Source: a virus
Taxonomy: Duplodnaviria; Heunggongvirae; Uroviricota; Caudoviricetes
IMG/VR virus record: IMGVR_UViG_3300037424_001372
Location: 140,837-204,836 of that record
DNA: 64,000 nt
Reading direction: 5' to 3' (one strand)
Under the pieces are notes generated by a model, which was not told the DNA's origin, searched no databases, and saw only the letters and a program-made list of their open reading frames with translations. Below, one piece after another: positions 25,072 to 35,059 of this stretch; within the stretch, counting starts at the first letter, position 1; every line of letters begins with the position of its first letter. The position numbers and the translations under genes are program-made.

Positions 25072-25863
25072 ATGAACCAATATCTTAAAGATAAACAATA
25101 TAAAGTGCCTGATAATATCCTAAAAAGGATTAGAACTACTCTAATATCAAATCCTACTGGTGAAGGTATTAAACGAGCAAAAAATATTTTAAATAGTGGG
25201 TATTTGACATATCAATCAATGAAAAGATTGAAAAATTTTTTTGATTATTTTAATCCACAAACAGGTGATAAGATACAATATATGCTTGCCGGTGGTGAAC
25301 ATATGAAAGCATTTATTGAACAAACATTAAACGCTGATAGGAATGCCGTTAAGGTTGGTAATGATGTGAAAAGAGATGTTAAAGATAATTTTAGATATGA
25401 ATTAAAACCATATGATACGCCTAAACAAGGTATCGAAACCATTAATGAGGATGAAAAGAAAAAAGAAAAACAAAAAAATGCTGTTGCAGTAATTGTTAAT
25501 AGCGATAATAAAATTTTATTATTAAAAAGAGGTGTCATAAAAAATGGATGGGGCAATGGTCAATATGGTTTGGTTGGCGGTGCTATTGAAAAAGGTGAAA
25601 GCCCTGAAAAAGCTTGTGAAAGAGAAATTAAAGAAGAAACTGATTTAGAAATCAATAAATTTACAAAATCATTTTCAATTCAAAGAAATGTGGATAGTAT
25701 TGAACACATATTTGCTTGCCGTTATGATGGTGAGCCGACTGATGTTAAACTTAATAATGAACATACTAATTATGGTTGGTATGATGTAAATGAAATGGAA
25801 TTTCTTGATACTGTGCCACATTTAATCGAATATATTACATTGGTATTTAAAAAATATGAATGA
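25072..25863 (+). CDS. Nudix hydrolase with an N-terminal domain of unknown function
   Basis: Nudix box GGAIEKGESPEKACEREIKEETDL; N-terminal RAKNI....LTY..MKRLKNFFD...Y.LAGG domain. Confidence 0.9.
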   Translation: MNQYLKDKQYKVPDNILKRIRTTLISNPTGEGIKRAKNILNSGYLTYQSMKRLKNFFDYFNPQTGDKIQYMLAGGEHMKAFIEQTLNADRNAVKVGNDVKRDVKDNFRYELKPYDTPKQGIETINEDEKKKEKQKNAVAVIVNSDNKILLLKRGVIKNGWGNGQYGLVGGAIEKGESPEKACEREIKEETDLEINKFTKSFSIQRNVDSIEHIFACRYDGEPTDVKLNNEHTNYGWYDVNEMEFLDTVPHLIEYITLVFKKYE

Positions 25864-28240: not shown

Positions 28241-31200
28241 ATGACATATAATGAATTTAAGCAAAATTATTTACCCGAATTAATTAAAATAAACTCATTT
28301 GCCGGTAAGAAAAAATATATTGATAATTATCTTCAAAGCGTTGGTAGTGGTACAGGTCGAGCAGTTTATGATATTGATGGTAATTATGTTTTAAAATTAG
28401 CAAAAAATCCAAAAGGTATTGCACAAAATGAAGCAGAAGCAGGTGCTGGTTCATATAATGATACAGAACATATTGTTGCTAAAGTAATCGATGAAGCAGA
28501 TGACTATAGTTGGTTGATTTCTGAAAAAGGTAAAAAGGTTACTGAAAATCGTATTAAACAAATTACCGGAATTCCAAGTTTATTAAAATTATATCATTTT
28601 TTAAGAAATTATGAATTAATTGTTAAGGGAAAGAAAGAATTCTCTCAATTAACTAAAGAAGAAAACGATTTTTTTTGGGAGAATGAATTTTCATCAAATT
28701 TAGCAGATTTTGTGGTAAACTATAACCAATCATCAGGCGATATGGGTCGCCCTAGTACATATGGTGAAGTATTGCGTAATGGTCAACCTTCGATTGTATT
28801 AACCGATTATGGTTTAAATGATGAAGTTTATGATACTCATTATAACCCACAAACAAAAAATAAATATAGAATGTATGAATTATATAATCATGGTGAAGGT
28901 AACGATGATGTTTTAAATGATATTGATGGTGATAATGATATTAGAAAAAGTAATTGGGCATTAATACCTTATGGTGTGGACGATGGCGATAATGTCGTGA
29001 ATGAAGAATTTATTAACTTTGTTTCAAATAGAAATAAATACCCAAATACTAACATTAATAATTTACCTACATTGGCAGATAATTTCCATGAATGTGTTAA
29101 TAATATTAGAGAAACTCTTAATAAAGTCGATAATAAAAAACAATTTTATTCTAACCTATTAGAACTTCAGAATTATTTAATTAGTAGAGATTTTTATCAC
29201 AATGAACCACTTTTAATTAAAGAAGATTATCCTAAAGAACAAGCTGATGCAATTGCTGTTGAAATAGGTGATAAATTAGGCGTAAATCCTAAACCAATTG
29301 GTGGTGGTAAATTTGGAGTTGCTTATGATATTGGTAATGATAAAATATTGAAAATTACTAAAGATAATAGTGAAGCATATGAAAATATTAAACTTATTGG
29401 TAAACCATTAAAATATATTGCATTACCATATAAGGTTTTTGAAATTAGCACTAAATCGAATTCAATTAAAACATATGGAATCATATTAGAAAAATTGAAA
29501 ACTAATCCAGAGTATTTTAAAAGAATGTATGATAGATTGGATTATGTTTGTAAAAATATTTTTAATACTGATTATCATACTCTCATTGATGCATATGTTT
29601 ATAATGATTTTGATTATATTGATGTTGATAAAAATCAAATAGAATCATATTTATCGAAAAATCCTGAAGATTTTAAATTTTTTAACGGTATTTTAAATAT
29701 TATTGATGAGCTAAAACAATATGATATTGATAGTGTTGAATTTTATAATGTGAAAAATTTAGGATATAAGAAAAGTGGTGATTTAGGTATGTTCGATGTT
29801 GGCTTTGCAGACACTTCGTCATACCCTCAAGGAATTGAAAAATATGATATTAATATTTCTGAAGATGGTAGTGCTAAATTTAGTACCAATAATTCTGTTG
29901 GACAAGATAATTTTCCACCATATAATATTAACGATACATCACCAAGCATTAATAATAGTTTAGATGCCAATATCTCAATGTATGAGGAAAGAAATAAATC
30001 ATTTGGTTCAGGTTCTAAATCAGTCGAAATAAAAAAAAAGTGTAAATTAGGTGGTATTGGTAATACTAGTGTTGCTTGCAATCAAGGCGATATTAATAAT
30101 TTAGAGTTTAAATCTATAAATGAAGTTATTGATGCCAAACAAGCATATCGTGATAGTGATGCAATACAGGCAATGATTAATGGTAATAAAGATGTTGCAC
30201 TCATTTCATTTAAAAGAAATCCAGATATTGAAAATATTTTAAATAAAAATGGATGGGGAAAAACTAAGATAGTTCAAAATCATGATAATATTGACATGCA
30301 TTTAATATATCGTAAATCTCAAGAAGGTTTAAAAAAAGCAATGCAATTATATCGAATATTAGAAAAAAAAGGTGGATATTTGAAGGATGAAACACCTGAA
30401 GAAGCTCGTGAAATTGGAAGACTTTTAGATTATACAGACGAATCAATAGACCAATATGTTGATAGTAAATATAATGGTCATATAAATGAAAATTCATTTG
30501 AAAATACTAAGGTAGTTGATAATCAAGGTAAATCATTTCCAGAACTAGATGTAACAAAATCTAATAAGTTGCGTAATAATATCATGAATGAAGTAAATAT
30601 GATATCGTTACAAGAATTACCATTTAAACAAGAAGTTGAACAACTTGGTGGTAATATATATTCAGTTGGTGGTGCAGTCCGTGATGAATTCTTGGGTAAT
30701 GAATCGAAAGATTTGGACATTCTCATCACAGGTATACCTATGGATAAACTTGAAGAAATTTTATCAAAATATGGTAGAGTAGATGCTGTTGGAAAGTCTT
30801 TTGGTATTTTAAAATTCAAACCTAAAGGTTCTGAAGAAGATATTGATGTAGCAATACCTCGTACCGAAAAACCAACTGGTGAAGGGGGTCATAAAGGATT
30901 TGAGGTTTCTTCAGACCATGCTTTACCGATTGAAAAAGATTTGAAACGTAGAGATTTTACTATCAATGCTATTGCAAAAGACATAAATGGTAATTTAATT
31001 GACCCATTTCATGGTCAAGAAGATTTAAAAAATAAAATTATTAGAGTTGTTAATCCTGAAGCATTTAGTGATGACCCATTGAGAATGTTAAGGGCCATAC
31101 AATTTTCTAGTCGTTTTGGATTTACTATTGAACCCAAAACGATGGAAATGATTAAAAATAATGTATCTAAAATTAATGAAATTGCTGCCGAAAGAATTTT

Positions 31201-32641
31201 AACTGAATTAGATAAGATAATTAGAAAAGGAAATTCATTAATTGGTGTACAATTATTATCATCAACTGGATTATTTAAACAAATTTTTGGTAATGAAATA
31301 AAACCATCACAAATTGGTCGTAGAGATTTTAGTCAAGTTAAAACTATGGCAGAATTTTTATTTCTAATGATGAATGGTGTTGTTCAAAATCCATCAGAAT
31401 TTTATTTAAAAAGGTTTAGTACCGAGGATTCTAAAAGAGATAAAACTTATAAAGAACTAAAAGCATTGGAAACGGCATTTAATTCTGATTTAGTTAATCA
31501 ACAAATGTCACCAGCTATTGCAAGGTCAATTGGACACAACATGTATTCAATTGCACCACAATCATTGCAAAGTCAGATATTACCGGAACAAATATCAAAA
31601 GCTGCTCAAGAACTATTACATGGTCAATATCCTAAAAATACCATAGAGTTAGCTTTAAACGGTAACGATTTAATGCAAAAAGGTTTGCAAGGTCAACAAA
31701 TAGGACAAGCGTTGAAAAGTCTTTTAATTAAAGTATATGCTGATGAGGTTCATAATACTAAAGATGAATTGTTTGCAGCTTTAAATAGTATCGGTAAAAA
31801 AACGTTAAACGAATCAAAAGAAAATCAAATCGAATATGGTGCATTAATGTTATTTATTGATACGAATAATTGGAATAAATATACTAGTCTAATTAATAAA
31901 AACGATTTATATGAAAAAAATAATGAATTTGGTGTTGAAGATGAACCACATGTAACATTGTTATATGGATTTAAAGATAATGTTACCAATAAACAAGTAT
32001 TTGATTTATATAAAGAAAAATTTCAACTAAAACCAATTGAAATTGAATTTAACGAGATTTCGATATTTGAAAACGATGATTTTGATGTGGTTAAATTTGA
32101 TATAAAAAATGATGAATTATCTAAAATCAATAAAGAACTTAGAAAATTACCAAATAAATTAACATACCCAACATATCATCCACATATGACAATTGCATAC
32201 GTAAAAAAAGGTCTGGGTGAAAAATATGTGAAAAAACTAAATACTAATTTAAAAATGATTGGTAATAAGTTAGTGTTTTCAACAAAAAAAGAGAAGAAAT
32301 CTATTTTAAATTTAAATAATAATGAAAATTTAAATGAAGGTAAATCATCTTATAATGAAGTTAAAGATTCTTTATTAAAATCTAAATCAATTCCTAAAGA
32401 AATGAAGGAAGAGATTTTAAAGTATTTAACAAGTGGTTCTAATTATCATGAAGGTGGTAGAGTAATAGGGTTAATAAAACCTAAAGAATTGACTGAAAAA
32501 TCGTCAAAAACTAAAGGAGTTAGTATGGGAGCAGATAAGAATGGATTTTATGTTTATACACATAGAGCACGTTCTAAGTCACATCTTACACCAGATAAAA
32601 TAACTGTTAAAGAAATTGATTTTATTGAATCAACTGGTTAA
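28241..32641 (+). CDS. 1466-aa multidomain protein: two protein-kinase-like domains, unknown domain, CCA-adding/poly(A)-polymerase-type nucleotidyltransferase, 2H phosphoesterase, conserved C-terminal domain
   Basis: Kinase 1: GSGTGR..Y, VLKLAK, GD, TDYG. Kinase 2: GGGKFG.AY, ILKIT, KNLG, FDVG. CCA: VGGAVRD, DLD, DL.RRDFTINA, DDPLRMLRA. 2H: PHVTL and PHMTIAY. Confidence 0.85.
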   Translation: MTYNEFKQNYLPELIKINSFAGKKKYIDNYLQSVGSGTGRAVYDIDGNYVLKLAKNPKGIAQNEAEAGAGSYNDTEHIVAKVIDEADDYSWLISEKGKKVTENRIKQITGIPSLLKLYHFLRNYELIVKGKKEFSQLTKEENDFFWENEFSSNLADFVVNYNQSSGDMGRPSTYGEVLRNGQPSIVLTDYGLNDEVYDTHYNPQTKNKYRMYELYNHGEGNDDVLNDIDGDNDIRKSNWALIPYGVDDGDNVVNEEFINFVSNRNKYPNTNINNLPTLADNFHECVNNIRETLNKVDNKKQFYSNLLELQNYLISRDFYHNEPLLIKEDYPKEQADAIAVEIGDKLGVNPKPIGGGKFGVAYDIGNDKILKITKDNSEAYENIKLIGKPLKYIALPYKVFEISTKSNSIKTYGIILEKLKTNPEYFKRMYDRLDYVCKNIFNTDYHTLIDAYVYNDFDYIDVDKNQIESYLSKNPEDFKFFNGILNIIDELKQYDIDSVEFYNVKNLGYKKSGDLGMFDVGFADTSSYPQGIEKYDINISEDGSAKFSTNNSVGQDNFPPYNINDTSPSINNSLDANISMYEERNKSFGSGSKSVEIKKKCKLGGIGNTSVACNQGDINNLEFKSINEVIDAKQAYRDSDAIQAMINGNKDVALISFKRNPDIENILNKNGWGKTKIVQNHDNIDMHLIYRKSQEGLKKAMQLYRILEKKGGYLKDETPEEAREIGRLLDYTDESIDQYVDSKYNGHINENSFENTKVVDNQGKSFPELDVTKSNKLRNNIMNEVNMISLQELPFKQEVEQLGGNIYSVGGAVRDEFLGNESKDLDILITGIPMDKLEEILSKYGRVDAVGKSFGILKFKPKGSEEDIDVAIPRTEKPTGEGGHKGFEVSSDHALPIEKDLKRRDFTINAIAKDINGNLIDPFHGQEDLKNKIIRVVNPEAFSDDPLRMLRAIQFSSRFGFTIEPKTMEMIKNNVSKINEIAAERILTELDKIIRKGNSLIGVQLLSSTGLFKQIFGNEIKPSQIGRRDFSQVKTMAEFLFLMMNGVVQNPSEFYLKRFSTEDSKRDKTYKELKALETAFNSDLVNQQMSPAIARSIGHNMYSIAPQSLQSQILPEQISKAAQELLHGQYPKNTIELALNGNDLMQKGLQGQQIGQALKSLLIKVYADEVHNTKDELFAALNSIGKKTLNESKENQIEYGALMLFIDTNNWNKYTSLINKNDLYEKNNEFGVEDEPHVTLLYGFKDNVTNKQVFDLYKEKFQLKPIEIEFNEISIFENDDFDVVKFDIKNDELSKINKELRKLPNKLTYPTYHPHMTIAYVKKGLGEKYVKKLNTNLKMIGNKLVFSTKKEKKSILNLNNNENLNEGKSSYNEVKDSLLKSKSIPKEMKEEILKYLTSGSNYHEGGRVIGLIKPKELTEKSSKTKGVSMGADKNGFYVYTHRARSKSHLTPDKITVKEIDFIESTG

Positions 32642-32661
32642 TAATTTAATTAAAATTAATA

Positions 32662-33048
32662 ATGAAAAATATTTCGTATAGCGGTGTTGTTTTAGATAAT
32701 GCATCTAAAAATAAATTAGTTGAATATTTTAAATCAATAATTCCTTTAGGATTTGAAATAATTGCACACCATATGACCATTAAATTAGGTGCTTTGGATG
32801 AAAATTCAGAAGCAAAACGAGATATGATTAATAATAAAATCATTACGCTTAATGTTGTTGATTATGCTATTAATAATCTAGTATTTGCAGTTGGTGTCGA
32901 TGGTTATCCTTCAAATAATGTAAAACCTCACATTACAATTGCAGTTAATCGTGTTGAAGGAGGTAAACCATACATGTCAAATAAATTGACTGATTGGAAA
33001 CCATTGAAAAATACTATTAGAATTCAAGGTATTGTAATGGAGATTTAA
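32662..33048 (+). CDS. 2H phosphoesterase (tRNA-ligase cyclic phosphodiesterase-like)
   Basis: Two HxT motifs: AHHMTI and KPHITIA. Confidence 0.75.
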   Translation: MKNISYSGVVLDNASKNKLVEYFKSIIPLGFEIIAHHMTIKLGALDENSEAKRDMINNKIITLNVVDYAINNLVFAVGVDGYPSNNVKPHITIAVNRVEGGKPYMSNKLTDWKPLKNTIRIQGIVMEI

Positions 33049-33079
33049 TTATAAAAAAAATGTTTTAAATTGATAATAT

Positions 33080-33646
33080 ATGATTACGAAAAATAATAAA
33101 AAAGTTATTAAACGACTGTGTACCTACGACTTTGATATGACATTGATTAACACATATTCTCCAGAAATTGGTAAACCTATGTGGGAAAAATATTATGATG
33201 AAAAATTTAAATATTCTGGTTGGTGGGGTAGACCAGAAAGTCTCGATACAAATGTTTTTGATATAAAACCATATCCAGAAATTTTAGAGAAATTAATTTC
33301 AGATAATAATGCTAAAGATACTCATGTTATTATATTAACATCGAGACAGGAAAAACTACGTTCACAACTTGAAAATGTTCTAAAATTGAACAATATTCAT
33401 GTTGATGAAATTGTTATGAAAAAAGGTAATGCTGATAAAGGTGATATTATCATGAAATATGTTAATAATAATCCTGATTTGGAATATATTATTTCATATG
33501 ATGATTTTGCTGGTGGATTGCAAGATAAAATTGATGAATATACTAAAATTAAACCTGAGTTGGATAATAGAGGTATTCAATTTAACATCGTTACTGTGGT
33601 CAATGGTCAAATTAGTAAATTGGCCGAATCAACATGTTATTCATGA
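33080..33646 (+). CDS. HAD phosphatase, Swiss-army-knife RNA-repair-like
   Basis: DFDMTL motif I, WW..PESL, ILTSR motif II, K, and YDD motif IV. Confidence 0.75.
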   Translation: MITKNNKKVIKRLCTYDFDMTLINTYSPEIGKPMWEKYYDEKFKYSGWWGRPESLDTNVFDIKPYPEILEKLISDNNAKDTHVIILTSRQEKLRSQLENVLKLNNIHVDEIVMKKGNADKGDIIMKYVNNNPDLEYIISYDDFAGGLQDKIDEYTKIKPELDNRGIQFNIVTVVNGQISKLAESTCYS

Positions 33647-33692: not shown

Positions 33693-34520
33693 ATGTTAAA
33701 AAATGGTAGACCATATCATTTACCCCAATTAAATTTCCCATATGAAATTGTTTTAGAAAAATTAGATGATGAAGGTATTGAATATGATGTTATTGAAGTA
33801 ACGCCAAATGAAAATGATAATATAAATCCTTCTCAATCAATAGTGTATGCCGATGAAATTTCTGGCGTTAATATAGACGATAAACATCCAATTTGGCTTG
33901 CTGGTGATGAAAATATTAATATTTGTGATGGTCATCATCGTTATTTTAAGGCAATGTTTGATAACAAAAGCATTATTGCAATTAAATTAAATTGTTCATT
34001 TAACGATGCTTGTAGAGTTTTGAATAAAATTCAAGACATATATGAATATGAAATGTCACAAGGATTAGAAGAAGTCCAAGTTCAAGATACCATTAATTTT
34101 TATGGTGATGACGATAATCAATTTTTAACTTCTCTTGAAGAAGATAATATATCATTACAAAATGAAACACCTTCGAAAAATACTAAAACTATTATAGGTT
34201 ATAGAGAAAAGCCGATTAATGAAAATTCAGTCGTTGGAAACTTTTTTATGATATCACCAGTTGATGGTTATGATAAATATGAAATCGAGTTTGATAATCT
34301 CTTAGATACAAATTCTTTGGGTATTGTTTATAAAGATAGTCAAGACCCAATAGATATCTTAGCTAAAAGTTGGTTTCCTAACATTAATTTTGAAAAGTTA
34401 AGCACACAACACAATACCCAATCAAATAACCTTAAGTCTAAAGCAATTGCCGAAAAAGCAATAAAAATGGGATTTGATGGAATTAAATATGGGGATAAAA
34501 TAATTCAAGGTTTAAAATAA
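33693..34520 (+). CDS. ParB/Srx-like N-terminal domain plus C-terminal domain (possible ADP-ribosyltransferase-like)
   Basis: ICDGHHRY in the N-terminal half; C-terminal GYR...GNFF and AEKA...GFDGIKY. Confidence 0.55.
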   Translation: MLKNGRPYHLPQLNFPYEIVLEKLDDEGIEYDVIEVTPNENDNINPSQSIVYADEISGVNIDDKHPIWLAGDENINICDGHHRYFKAMFDNKSIIAIKLNCSFNDACRVLNKIQDIYEYEMSQGLEEVQVQDTINFYGDDDNQFLTSLEEDNISLQNETPSKNTKTIIGYREKPINENSVVGNFFMISPVDGYDKYEIEFDNLLDTNSLGIVYKDSQDPIDILAKSWFPNINFEKLSTQHNTQSNNLKSKAIAEKAIKMGFDGIKYGDKIIQGLK

Positions 34521-34525
34521 ATTAA

Positions 34526-35059
34526 ATGAAAAAAAATGTTATACTTGCTTTTATAATGTTAGTTGGATTTTTTTGTGAAATGTCATCTCAAAATTTTTCC
34601 GAATTAGATTATAAAGCAGCTTTTACGACATCAATTGTTAGATATTTTGGTTGGGATAAATCTGTTATTCAATCAGATACTGATTTTGTAATCGGTATTG
34701 TGAAAAATCGTGCCTTATTTAATAAAGTTTATCAAAGTGCTAATAATAAACAATATGGATATCAAAAAATTGTTGTTAAGGAGTTTAATAATGTAAATAA
34801 TATTACAGATTGTCATGTATTATTTATTTCTTCATTAGTTAATTTTTCAAAATATCATAATATCATTCATAATATTATTGGTAAAAATACGTTAATAATT
34901 ACTGAAGCAGATGGTATGATTAAATATGGTTCTTCGATTAATTTCATTATTATAGATAATATACTTAAATTTGAAATCAATAAGAAAAACATTATTAATA
35001 GTAATATTCAATTAAATGGTAAATTAGAAAGATTGACCAATTCAATAATCGTAAATTAA
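34526..35059 (+). CDS. YfiR/HmsC (DUF4154)-like exported protein
   Basis: Signal peptide; KAAF...I.RY..W, F.IGIV, CHVLFIS, L.ITE..G......INF......L.FEIN......I.L...L..L. Confidence 0.75.
   Translation: MKKNVILAFIMLVGFFCEMSSQNFSELDYKAAFTTSIVRYFGWDKSVIQSDTDFVIGIVKNRALFNKVYQSANNKQYGYQKIVVKEFNNVNNITDCHVLFISSLVNFSKYHNIIHNIIGKNTLIITEADGMIKYGSSINFIIIDNILKFEINKKNIINSNIQLNGKLERLTNSIIVN

Follow-up and report, generated by a model that had tools for sequence, protein, structure and literature searches.

A locus in the genome of a Caudoviricetes phage probably encodes a set of enzymes that heals and rebuilds the 3' (acceptor) ends of tRNAs without an RNA ligase, and we put the probability of this reading at about 0.6. 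The locus lies in a stretch of 64,000 nucleotides, referred to below as the window, which corresponds to G000:C1:140837-204836 of the 324,744-bp IMG/VR virus record IMGVR_UViG_3300037424_001372 (CheckV completeness 100%). It comprises a single open reading frame (ORF) for a polyprotein of 1466 amino acids (aa) (P0001; window 28241..32641), a gene for a small 2H phosphoesterase (mini-2H, 128 aa; 32662..33048) and a gene for a HAD phosphatase (188 aa; 33080..33646). All three, together with the modules of the polyprotein, are on the + strand. Seven modules follow one another in the polyprotein in the order A-B-C-D-CCA-2H-tail, and among them are a CCA-adding enzyme and another, internal 2H phosphoesterase.

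Domain identities, fusions and synteny

The CCA module (aa 785-1191; 30593..31813) matches three Pfam families within residues 805-1180 of the polyprotein (PF01743, 1.1e-23; PF12627, 1.6e-15; PF13735, 1.1e-6). Among solved structures, the Bacillus CCA enzyme 1miv is the best match (E 2e-30); residues 3-381 of the module align with residues 19-393 of 1miv, end to end, and the head-neck-body-tail architecture is complete. The catalytic motifs of the Pol-beta head, VGGAVRDE (GGxVRD) and DLDIL (DxD), are kept in more than 130 of 148 relatives, and motif B, RRDFTINA in P0001, follows the RRDFTxN pattern conserved among them. Motif D reads DDPLR in P0001 and about 138 relatives, with an Asp replacing the first Glu of EDxxR, while the base-reading Asp and Arg are kept. 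No match to the HD domain (PF01966) was found in P0001, and the C-terminal part of the enzyme is PF13735. From its sequence we classify the module as an HD-less, Bacillus-type class II CCA-adding enzyme. Among isolated phages, DNA similarity is limited to short matches in the CCA domain; the tblastn matches span the CCA module only, and none of these phages carries the polyprotein.

The internal 2H module (aa 1192-1366; 31814..32338) is LigT/Acb1-like, and its HVT and HMT motifs are kept in 59 of 59 relatives. When scanned alone, it scores 43.4 bits for PF13563, 30.6 bits for Acb1 (PF23474, cut-off 27) and 27.5 bits for LigT, each above the respective cut-off. Its AF2 model (pLDDT 87) reaches VIA Z values of 10-12.6 to Usb1, AKAP18, LigT, CPDase and Acb1, and the value for Acb1, 11.9, is tied with those of the other 2H families. 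Assignment of a 2H subfamily from structure by Foldseek and VIA was tried and given up, as the scores for these families and for viral phosphodiesterases are tied and structure therefore cannot separate them.

The mini-2H protein carries HHMTI and PHITI, that is, two HxT motifs (HMT, HIT), and at least two H-x-T/S motifs are found in 70 of 73 relatives. Its own score for PF08302, the tRNA-ligase cyclic phosphodiesterase (CPD), is 15.1 bits (E 0.016; cut-off 23). The homologous module reaches 33 bits in P0007, 25 bits in P0042 and 24.5 bits in P0019, and the match of the mini-2H type is limited to the C-terminal third of the profile. We regard the protein as a predicted phosphoesterase of the Trl1-CPD-like kind. 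The HAD protein has the motifs DFDMT (DxDxT), ILTSR and YDD and a conserved Lys, all of which show no variation among five orthologues. It scores 21.4 bits for HAD_SAK_1 (PF10307; cut-off 25.6), all five orthologues match this family (best E 1.3e-6), and HAD proteins at other loci exceed the cut-off (L041, 32.4 bits; L029, 40 bits; L044, 48.4 bits). By profile, the gene is thus assigned to the Swiss-Army-Knife (SAK) RNA-repair phosphatase family.

The initial annotation had described four adjacent end-processing activities in 30600-33646 and had proposed that they heal and rebuild tRNA ends. All four activities (CCA enzyme, two 2H enzymes and HAD phosphatase) are present where it placed them, with significant scores, and its idea of a joint, ligase-free action at tRNA 3' ends is supported by the fusions and synteny described below. 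Its gene model had to be revised. Position 30600 marks the start of a domain and not of a gene. A single 1466-aa ORF contains both the CCA enzyme and the first 2H as domains, so the locus does not consist of four adjacent genes.

More than 250 relatives of the polyprotein, of 1200-2500 aa, show the arrangement A-B-C(-C)-D(-D)-CCA, after which comes a 2H of either type or of both types. Of 146 relatives bearing the CCA module, 99 have a fused 2H (mini type in 69, internal type in 50, both in 20). In the other 47, the protein ends within 25 aa past the CCA module in 30 cases, and the next gene can be a 2H gene there. The loci of the clade were collected from IMG/VR (CCA modules 47-75% identical), 27 of them with a downstream flank. 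Their conserved gene order is Nudix, three unknown genes, polyprotein, mini-2H, HAD, ParB-like gene, small ORF and glycosyltransferase. The HAD gene is syntenic in 23 of these 27 loci, and 26 of them have a 2H, either fused or adjacent.

The decisive comparative evidence comes from outside the clade. In L041, a single ORF of 698 aa joins a mini-2H (7-126), a CCA enzyme (153-522) and HAD_SAK_1 (537-697; the 32.4 bits given above), and it stands on a 298,833-bp contig without any of the surrounding clade block. A search for longer HAD relatives returned 119 proteins, and CCA and HAD were found in one chain in 42 clusters, 21 of them as CCA-HAD (~514-580 aa) and about 15 as 2H-CCA-HAD (~694-778 aa). 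The compact 2H-CCA-HAD proteins contain no other polyvalent module. The more distant L047 has a stand-alone CCA gene with a mini-2H gene directly beside it. Conserved linkage of the CCA, 2H and HAD genes, which had been set as a test of the repair proposal, is thus seen both as repeated fusion and as synteny. The HAD and mini-2H profiles also match eukaryotic SAK proteins of ~1600 aa (R3H, HAD_SAK_1, AKAP7-type 2H and AAA_33 kinase). The SAK families were reportedly defined by Burroughs and Aravind in 2016; in the literature searched, which did not cover that study, no description of CCA-2H-HAD fusions was found. As a separate observation, the L041 fusion gene (L041:9581-11674) is a lone + strand gene amid about 30 genes on the - strand.

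Proposed healing and rebuilding of tRNA 3' ends

2H enzymes of the Trl1-CPD and LigT types open the 2',3'-cyclic phosphates of RNA, typically to a 2'-phosphate, and CCA enzymes require a free 3'-OH. In the pathway that we propose, a 2H phosphoesterase would first open a 2',3'-cyclic phosphate at the end of the tRNA; the Trl1-CPD-like mini-2H would be suited to this step, and the internal 2H may do likewise. The SAK-type HAD phosphatase would then strip the remaining 2'- or 3'-phosphate, and the HD-less CCA enzyme would restore the missing C, C and A, so that a clipped, phosphorylated acceptor end would become a chargeable one. As the phage CCA enzyme is HD-less, the 2H and HAD enzymes would replace the HD domain. 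No second RNA fragment is involved, and therefore no ligase would be needed. The likely substrates would be the phage's own 33 CCA-less tRNAs and tRNAs with damaged ends. The second step has a precedent in the removal of 2' and 3' phosphates by DxDxT phosphatases, among them the T4 Pnkp domain (PMC3592404).

The initial annotation also stated that a ligase was missing, which agrees with our profile searches. In six-frame searches of the whole record, the ligase families PF09511 (Rnl1), PF09414 (Rnl2-like), PF01139 (RtcB) and PF01068 gave no match at E <= 1; the controls worked, and the absence holds at Pfam sensitivity. PF16542 also gave no match in the whole record, and this search was uninformative as its control itself matched nowhere. 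The Tpt1/KptA 2'-phosphotransferase was searched for and is absent. About 57 kb away, a fragment of an AAA_33 P-loop kinase (119 aa) precedes a protein of 187 aa with an HD domain (L016:1081-2040; G000:C1:230280-231239). They are the sole candidate for a 5'-kinase and the sole HD protein found; no ligase lies near them, and they may be what is left of a 5'-kinase/phosphatase pair.

The phage has 33 tRNA genes, none with an encoded CCA. Thirty of them stand in arrays on one strand (G000:C1:15467-38709; L097/L098), where several of the spacers are 4-10 nt. With CCA missing from every tRNA gene, ordinary maturation requires its addition anyway, and routine maturation and upkeep would be as direct a use of the CCA enzyme as the repair of toxin damage. 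It may even be supposed that the CCA enzyme serves solely to finish the 33 phage tRNAs, with the 2H and HAD enzymes next to it doing something unrelated. The short tandem spacers fit this explanation, as does the common occurrence of CCA enzymes in tRNA-rich jumbo phages (PMC7824862). Nevertheless, we find it unlikely. Ordinary precursors have 3'-OH ends and therefore require neither a cyclic phosphodiesterase nor a phosphatase, and dozens of protein clusters fuse 2H and HAD to the CCA enzyme. Maturation driven by self-cleaving ribozymes (HDV-like, theta or others), which leave cyclic phosphate ends, was considered as well and rejected, because a search with Rfam families (E <= 0.1) of three tRNA regions covering 39.5 kb found tRNAs only.

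As for damage, which the initial annotation ascribed to host toxins, toxins acting at the acceptor end do exist. For example, toxSAS/CapRel toxins pyrophosphorylate it (PMC9712102), and MenT nucleotidyltransferase toxins extend tRNA ends (PMC11541572), yet nothing found here ties the module to toxins.

Several points weigh against the proposal that the locus repairs acceptor ends. The mini-2H and HAD proteins of the window itself score below the Pfam cut-offs. We infer the RNA substrates from family membership and fusion only, and the counts of fusions and syntenic loci are not independent events because most of the homologues are related to one another. The internal 2H clears the Acb1 threshold as well, so that it is ambiguous between healing of RNA ends and Acb1-like destruction of signals. 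Because the 2H domains of polyvalent proteins are without ligase partners, Iyer et al. (2017) argued that breakdown of signalling nucleotides or an RNase activity is the likelier role for them (PMC5512222).

The last two points lead to a different explanation, in which one or both 2H enzymes are Acb1-like and destroy the cyclic nucleotide signals of CBASS or type III CRISPR systems or 2'-5' oligoadenylate-like signals, the HAD enzyme dephosphorylates the products, and the adjacency of the CCA enzyme results from module shuffling. The internal 2H resembles the structures of Acb1 and of phage and poxvirus cGAMP phosphodiesterases as closely as that of LigT, and its position varies in some relatives, as it precedes the CCA module in P0117, L029 and L034. 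On the other hand, the family matched by the mini-2H type is that of the tRNA-ligase CPD and not Acb1, and this type almost always adjoins the CCA module. The HAD enzyme comes from the SAK RNA-repair family, and the compact 2H-CCA-HAD proteins are free of other polyvalent modules. We therefore consider counter-signalling quite improbable as the function of this locus, and ligase-independent repair of the acceptor end is preferred.

Other polyprotein modules, border motifs and neighbouring genes

In the 800-residue AF2 model of the polyprotein there are three confident modules, A, C and D. Module A (aa 1-205; 28241..28855; pLDDT ~90) is a minimal protein-kinase-like domain of ~200 aa with a glycine loop (GSGTGR), a VLK lysine (VLKLAK) and the motifs GD..R.S.YGEV and DYG. 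A profile of its stand-alone relatives matches the Salmonella effector kinase SteC (8jbi, E 7.6e-6). Module B (aa 206-325; 28856..29215) is helical and partly disordered. Module C (aa 326-585; 29216..29995) is a second kinase-like domain; its residues 336-528 reach VIA Z values of 9-10.5 to PKR, CDK2 and Stk1, and Foldseek finds APH and kinase folds. It ends just after FDVGF, the equivalent of DFG, and its alignment to CDK2 is limited to residues 1-153. Both A and C are without the C-terminal subdomain of kinases. In module C, the window protein has a Glu where most relatives have a putative catalytic Asp (S.D...N.GY).

Module D (aa 586-750; 29996..30490) begins with a strongly conserved Cys motif, V.VKKKC.LGG.GNTS..CNQGDI.NL (aa ~594-624; window ~30020-30110), which precedes an NleE-like alpha/beta domain. 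The motif also occurs alone in relatives, and this accounts for the D-D architectures. Residues 628-747 (window 30122-30481) superimpose on NleE (4r29_A) with a VIA Z of 11.0 and a root-mean-square deviation of 2.1 A over 115 aa. NleE is also the sole PDB match of the module D profile (E 0.0027), over the same residues as the structural match, and SIDQYV of module D is aligned opposite EIDSYM. NleE/OspZ is a type III effector and a cysteine methyltransferase. The C-terminal tail module (aa 1367-1466; 32339..32638) belongs to phrog_3666, and structure comparison gave no fold match for it (best Z 3.2).

Giant proteins with truncated kinases in Bacteroidetes phages are the 'polyvalent proteins' of Iyer et al. 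2017 (PMC5512222). Judged by its domain content, P0001 is a polyprotein of this type, with many unrelated catalytic modules that are shuffled among relatives. Its N-terminal modules are also shuffled into about 2000 other proteins, and its relatives add or swap GNAT, ART-PolyVal, ParB, NlpC/P60, SLT and extra kinase modules.

With modules of this kind around it, the nucleotidyltransferase might be an effector for host takeover, which tails or blocks host tRNAs or mRNAs beside the kinases and the NleE-like domain and repairs nothing. Its place amid the SteC-like and NleE-like modules, the GNAT, ART-PolyVal and NlpC/P60 modules of the relatives, and the existence of toxins that extend tRNAs (MenT, PMC11541572) would suit such a role. 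It is difficult to reconcile with the alignment to 1miv from end to end and the complete domain set of a genuine CCA enzyme, with the conservation of the nucleotide-selecting and catalytic motifs, and with an association with end-healing enzymes rather than toxins. We hold this explanation to be very improbable.

The modules are separated by a conserved triplet consisting of a hydrophobic residue, a free middle residue and Glu (phi-x-E), which is found at every module border. It occurs within a few residues after the CCA module in 104 of 108 distinct relatives, whereas 37% of 20-aa windows drawn at random from these proteins contain one. It is also found 6-7 aa before module D (191 of 195 sequences), ~20 aa before the start of the CCA module (127 of 141 sequences) and after the 2H module. 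LNE triplets stand at both CCA borders of the L041 fusion, and in the AF2 models the sites fall in low-confidence linkers. In T4, proteins packaged in the head, such as Alt, are processed by the protease gp21, whose cleavage site follows the Glu of L/I-x-E. The phage genome encodes a prohead protease domain of the T4 gp21 type (PF03420, 29.2 bits), and the adjoining gene is for a gp23-like capsid protein (PF07068, 6e-63). Some 15 residues ahead of its conserved core, at the expected place of a maturation cut, the N-terminal part of this capsid protein has I-N-E. In the protease gene, ~1 kb separates the two halves of the profile within a single open frame of 615 aa (G000:C1:63143-64738; L013/L014), which suggests an insertion, possibly an intein or an extra domain.

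Cuts at MNE (782-784), LNE (1189-1191) and LNE (1364-1366) would free a CCA enzyme of 407 aa and a 2H enzyme of 175 aa, both of normal size. Because of the conserved borders, the T4-type protease and the gp23-like capsid protein, it is plausible that a prohead protease cleaves the polyprotein into normal-sized enzymes, possibly inside the head. Against cleavage, phi-x-E could be a structural feature of the module ends. In relatives, cell-wall hydrolase modules (NlpC/P60 or SLT) occur within the same proteins, as expected of proteins that are ejected. Packaging of the polyprotein into the virion is nevertheless doubtful. The same holds for the wider idea, offered tentatively, that the whole block is head cargo which would be packed in the prohead, cut at the phi-x-E borders and injected with the DNA. 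The polyprotein starts with MTYNEF, which we take to resemble the capsid-targeting sequence of T4 internal proteins; no weight is placed on this likeness, and in the model MTYNEF forms the opening helix of module A (pLDDT 91).

The genome has a GC content of ~27%, and the + strand carries nearly all genes. Upstream of the locus are genes for an SNF2-type helicase, a DNA polymerase and a Nudix hydrolase, and downstream are those for a glycosyltransferase and a baseplate protein. The Nudix protein (window 25072-25863), encoded by the first gene of the conserved syntenic block, has a 116-aa N-terminal extension; the Nudix part is matched by a PHROG family of portal proteins, a hint that portal and Nudix domains are fused elsewhere. 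The HAD gene is always followed by ParB275 in related loci, and fusions of the two occur in three protein clusters (P0260-P0262). ParB275 (275 aa; 33693..34520, + strand) has a DGHHR (ParB/Srx-like) motif and no Pfam match, with weak Atlas leads to ART-PolyVal (0.82) and ParB_N (0.78). Between it and the small ORF, the window has a gene for a YfiR/HmsC-like protein with a signal peptide (PF13689, 6.7e-25; window 34526-35059), which is absent in all related loci examined.

Comparison with known systems

The closest parallel is E. coli Cca. As described in PMC6961547 (citing Yakunin 2004), its C-terminal HD domain heals tRNA 3' ends that bear a 2',3'-cyclic phosphate or a phosphate, and CCA is then added. 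In that description, healing and CCA rebuilding of the tRNA 3' end are physically coupled and no ligase takes part, as we propose for the phage. Since E. coli Cca heals ends before CCA addition, the pathway is not new in principle. Unlike E. coli Cca, the phage enzyme has PF13735 in place of an HD domain; healing would be performed by 2H and HAD_SAK modules, a non-orthologous displacement, and the modules are parts of a polyprotein or of 2H-CCA-HAD fusions.

When compared with the Pnkp/Rnl1 (and Rnl2) system of T4, the phage locus would likewise be a phage-encoded answer to broken tRNA, and in both a HAD (DxDxT) phosphatase removes, or here would remove, 3' phosphates. The differences are that no ligase family was detected in this phage, that its sole 5'-kinase candidate is the distant AAA_33 fragment, and that the proposed target is the acceptor end, whereas that of T4 is the anticodon loop. 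With the SAK proteins and the CPD of fungal Trl1 (PF10307, PF08302), the locus shares a HAD of the HAD_SAK_1 family and, in relatives, a mini-2H that matches the Trl1 CPD. However, the partner is a CCA-adding enzyme and not a kinase and ligase, and the genes are phage-borne.

The polyvalent proteins (PMC5512222) resemble P0001 in being giant and multi-domain, with the C-terminally truncated kinases typical of Bacteroidetes phages, with 2H modules that never stand beside ligases, and with GNAT, ART-PolyVal, ParB, NlpC/P60 and SLT modules, found here in the relatives. CCA-adding enzymes and NleE-like domains are not mentioned in that paper ('CCA' has 0 occurrences). Also, the modules here are separated by conserved sites of the T4-protease-like kind, and no MuF or portal fusion was seen at the locus. 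The head-packaged proteins of T4 that are processed by gp21 (Alt, IPI-III) offer a further comparison. The T4-type protease, the gp23-like capsid protein and the hydrophobic-x-Glu sites matching L/I-x-E are common features, but the putative cargo would be enzymes for RNA-end repair and kinases instead of an ADP-ribosyltransferase.

To our knowledge, phage RNA repair is known almost wholly from the heal-and-seal pathway of T4 for anticodon breaks, and no characterised phage countermeasure at the tRNA acceptor end was found in the literature searched. While the coupling of a CCA enzyme to end-healing phosphoesterases is already known from E. coli Cca, the novelty lies in 2H and SAK-HAD modules that are held in, or condensed from, phage polyvalent polyproteins. 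The locus and the 2H-CCA-HAD fusions provide a concrete candidate for such a countermeasure, and one protein of ~700 aa should convert a tRNA ending in a cyclic phosphate to tRNA-CCA. The 2H domains that occur in polyvalent proteins without a ligase thereby gain a second reading, and the repertoire of these proteins is extended by CCA-adding, NleE-like and SteC-like modules. If the block is indeed carried in the head, the phage would arrive with a ligase-free repair kit for the acceptor end (CCA enzyme and 2H, with HAD in relatives), together with truncated kinases and an NleE-like methyltransferase. Such cargo could act before phage gene expression, and before defences of the toxSAS/CapRel, MenT or acceptor-stem tRNase type halt translation.

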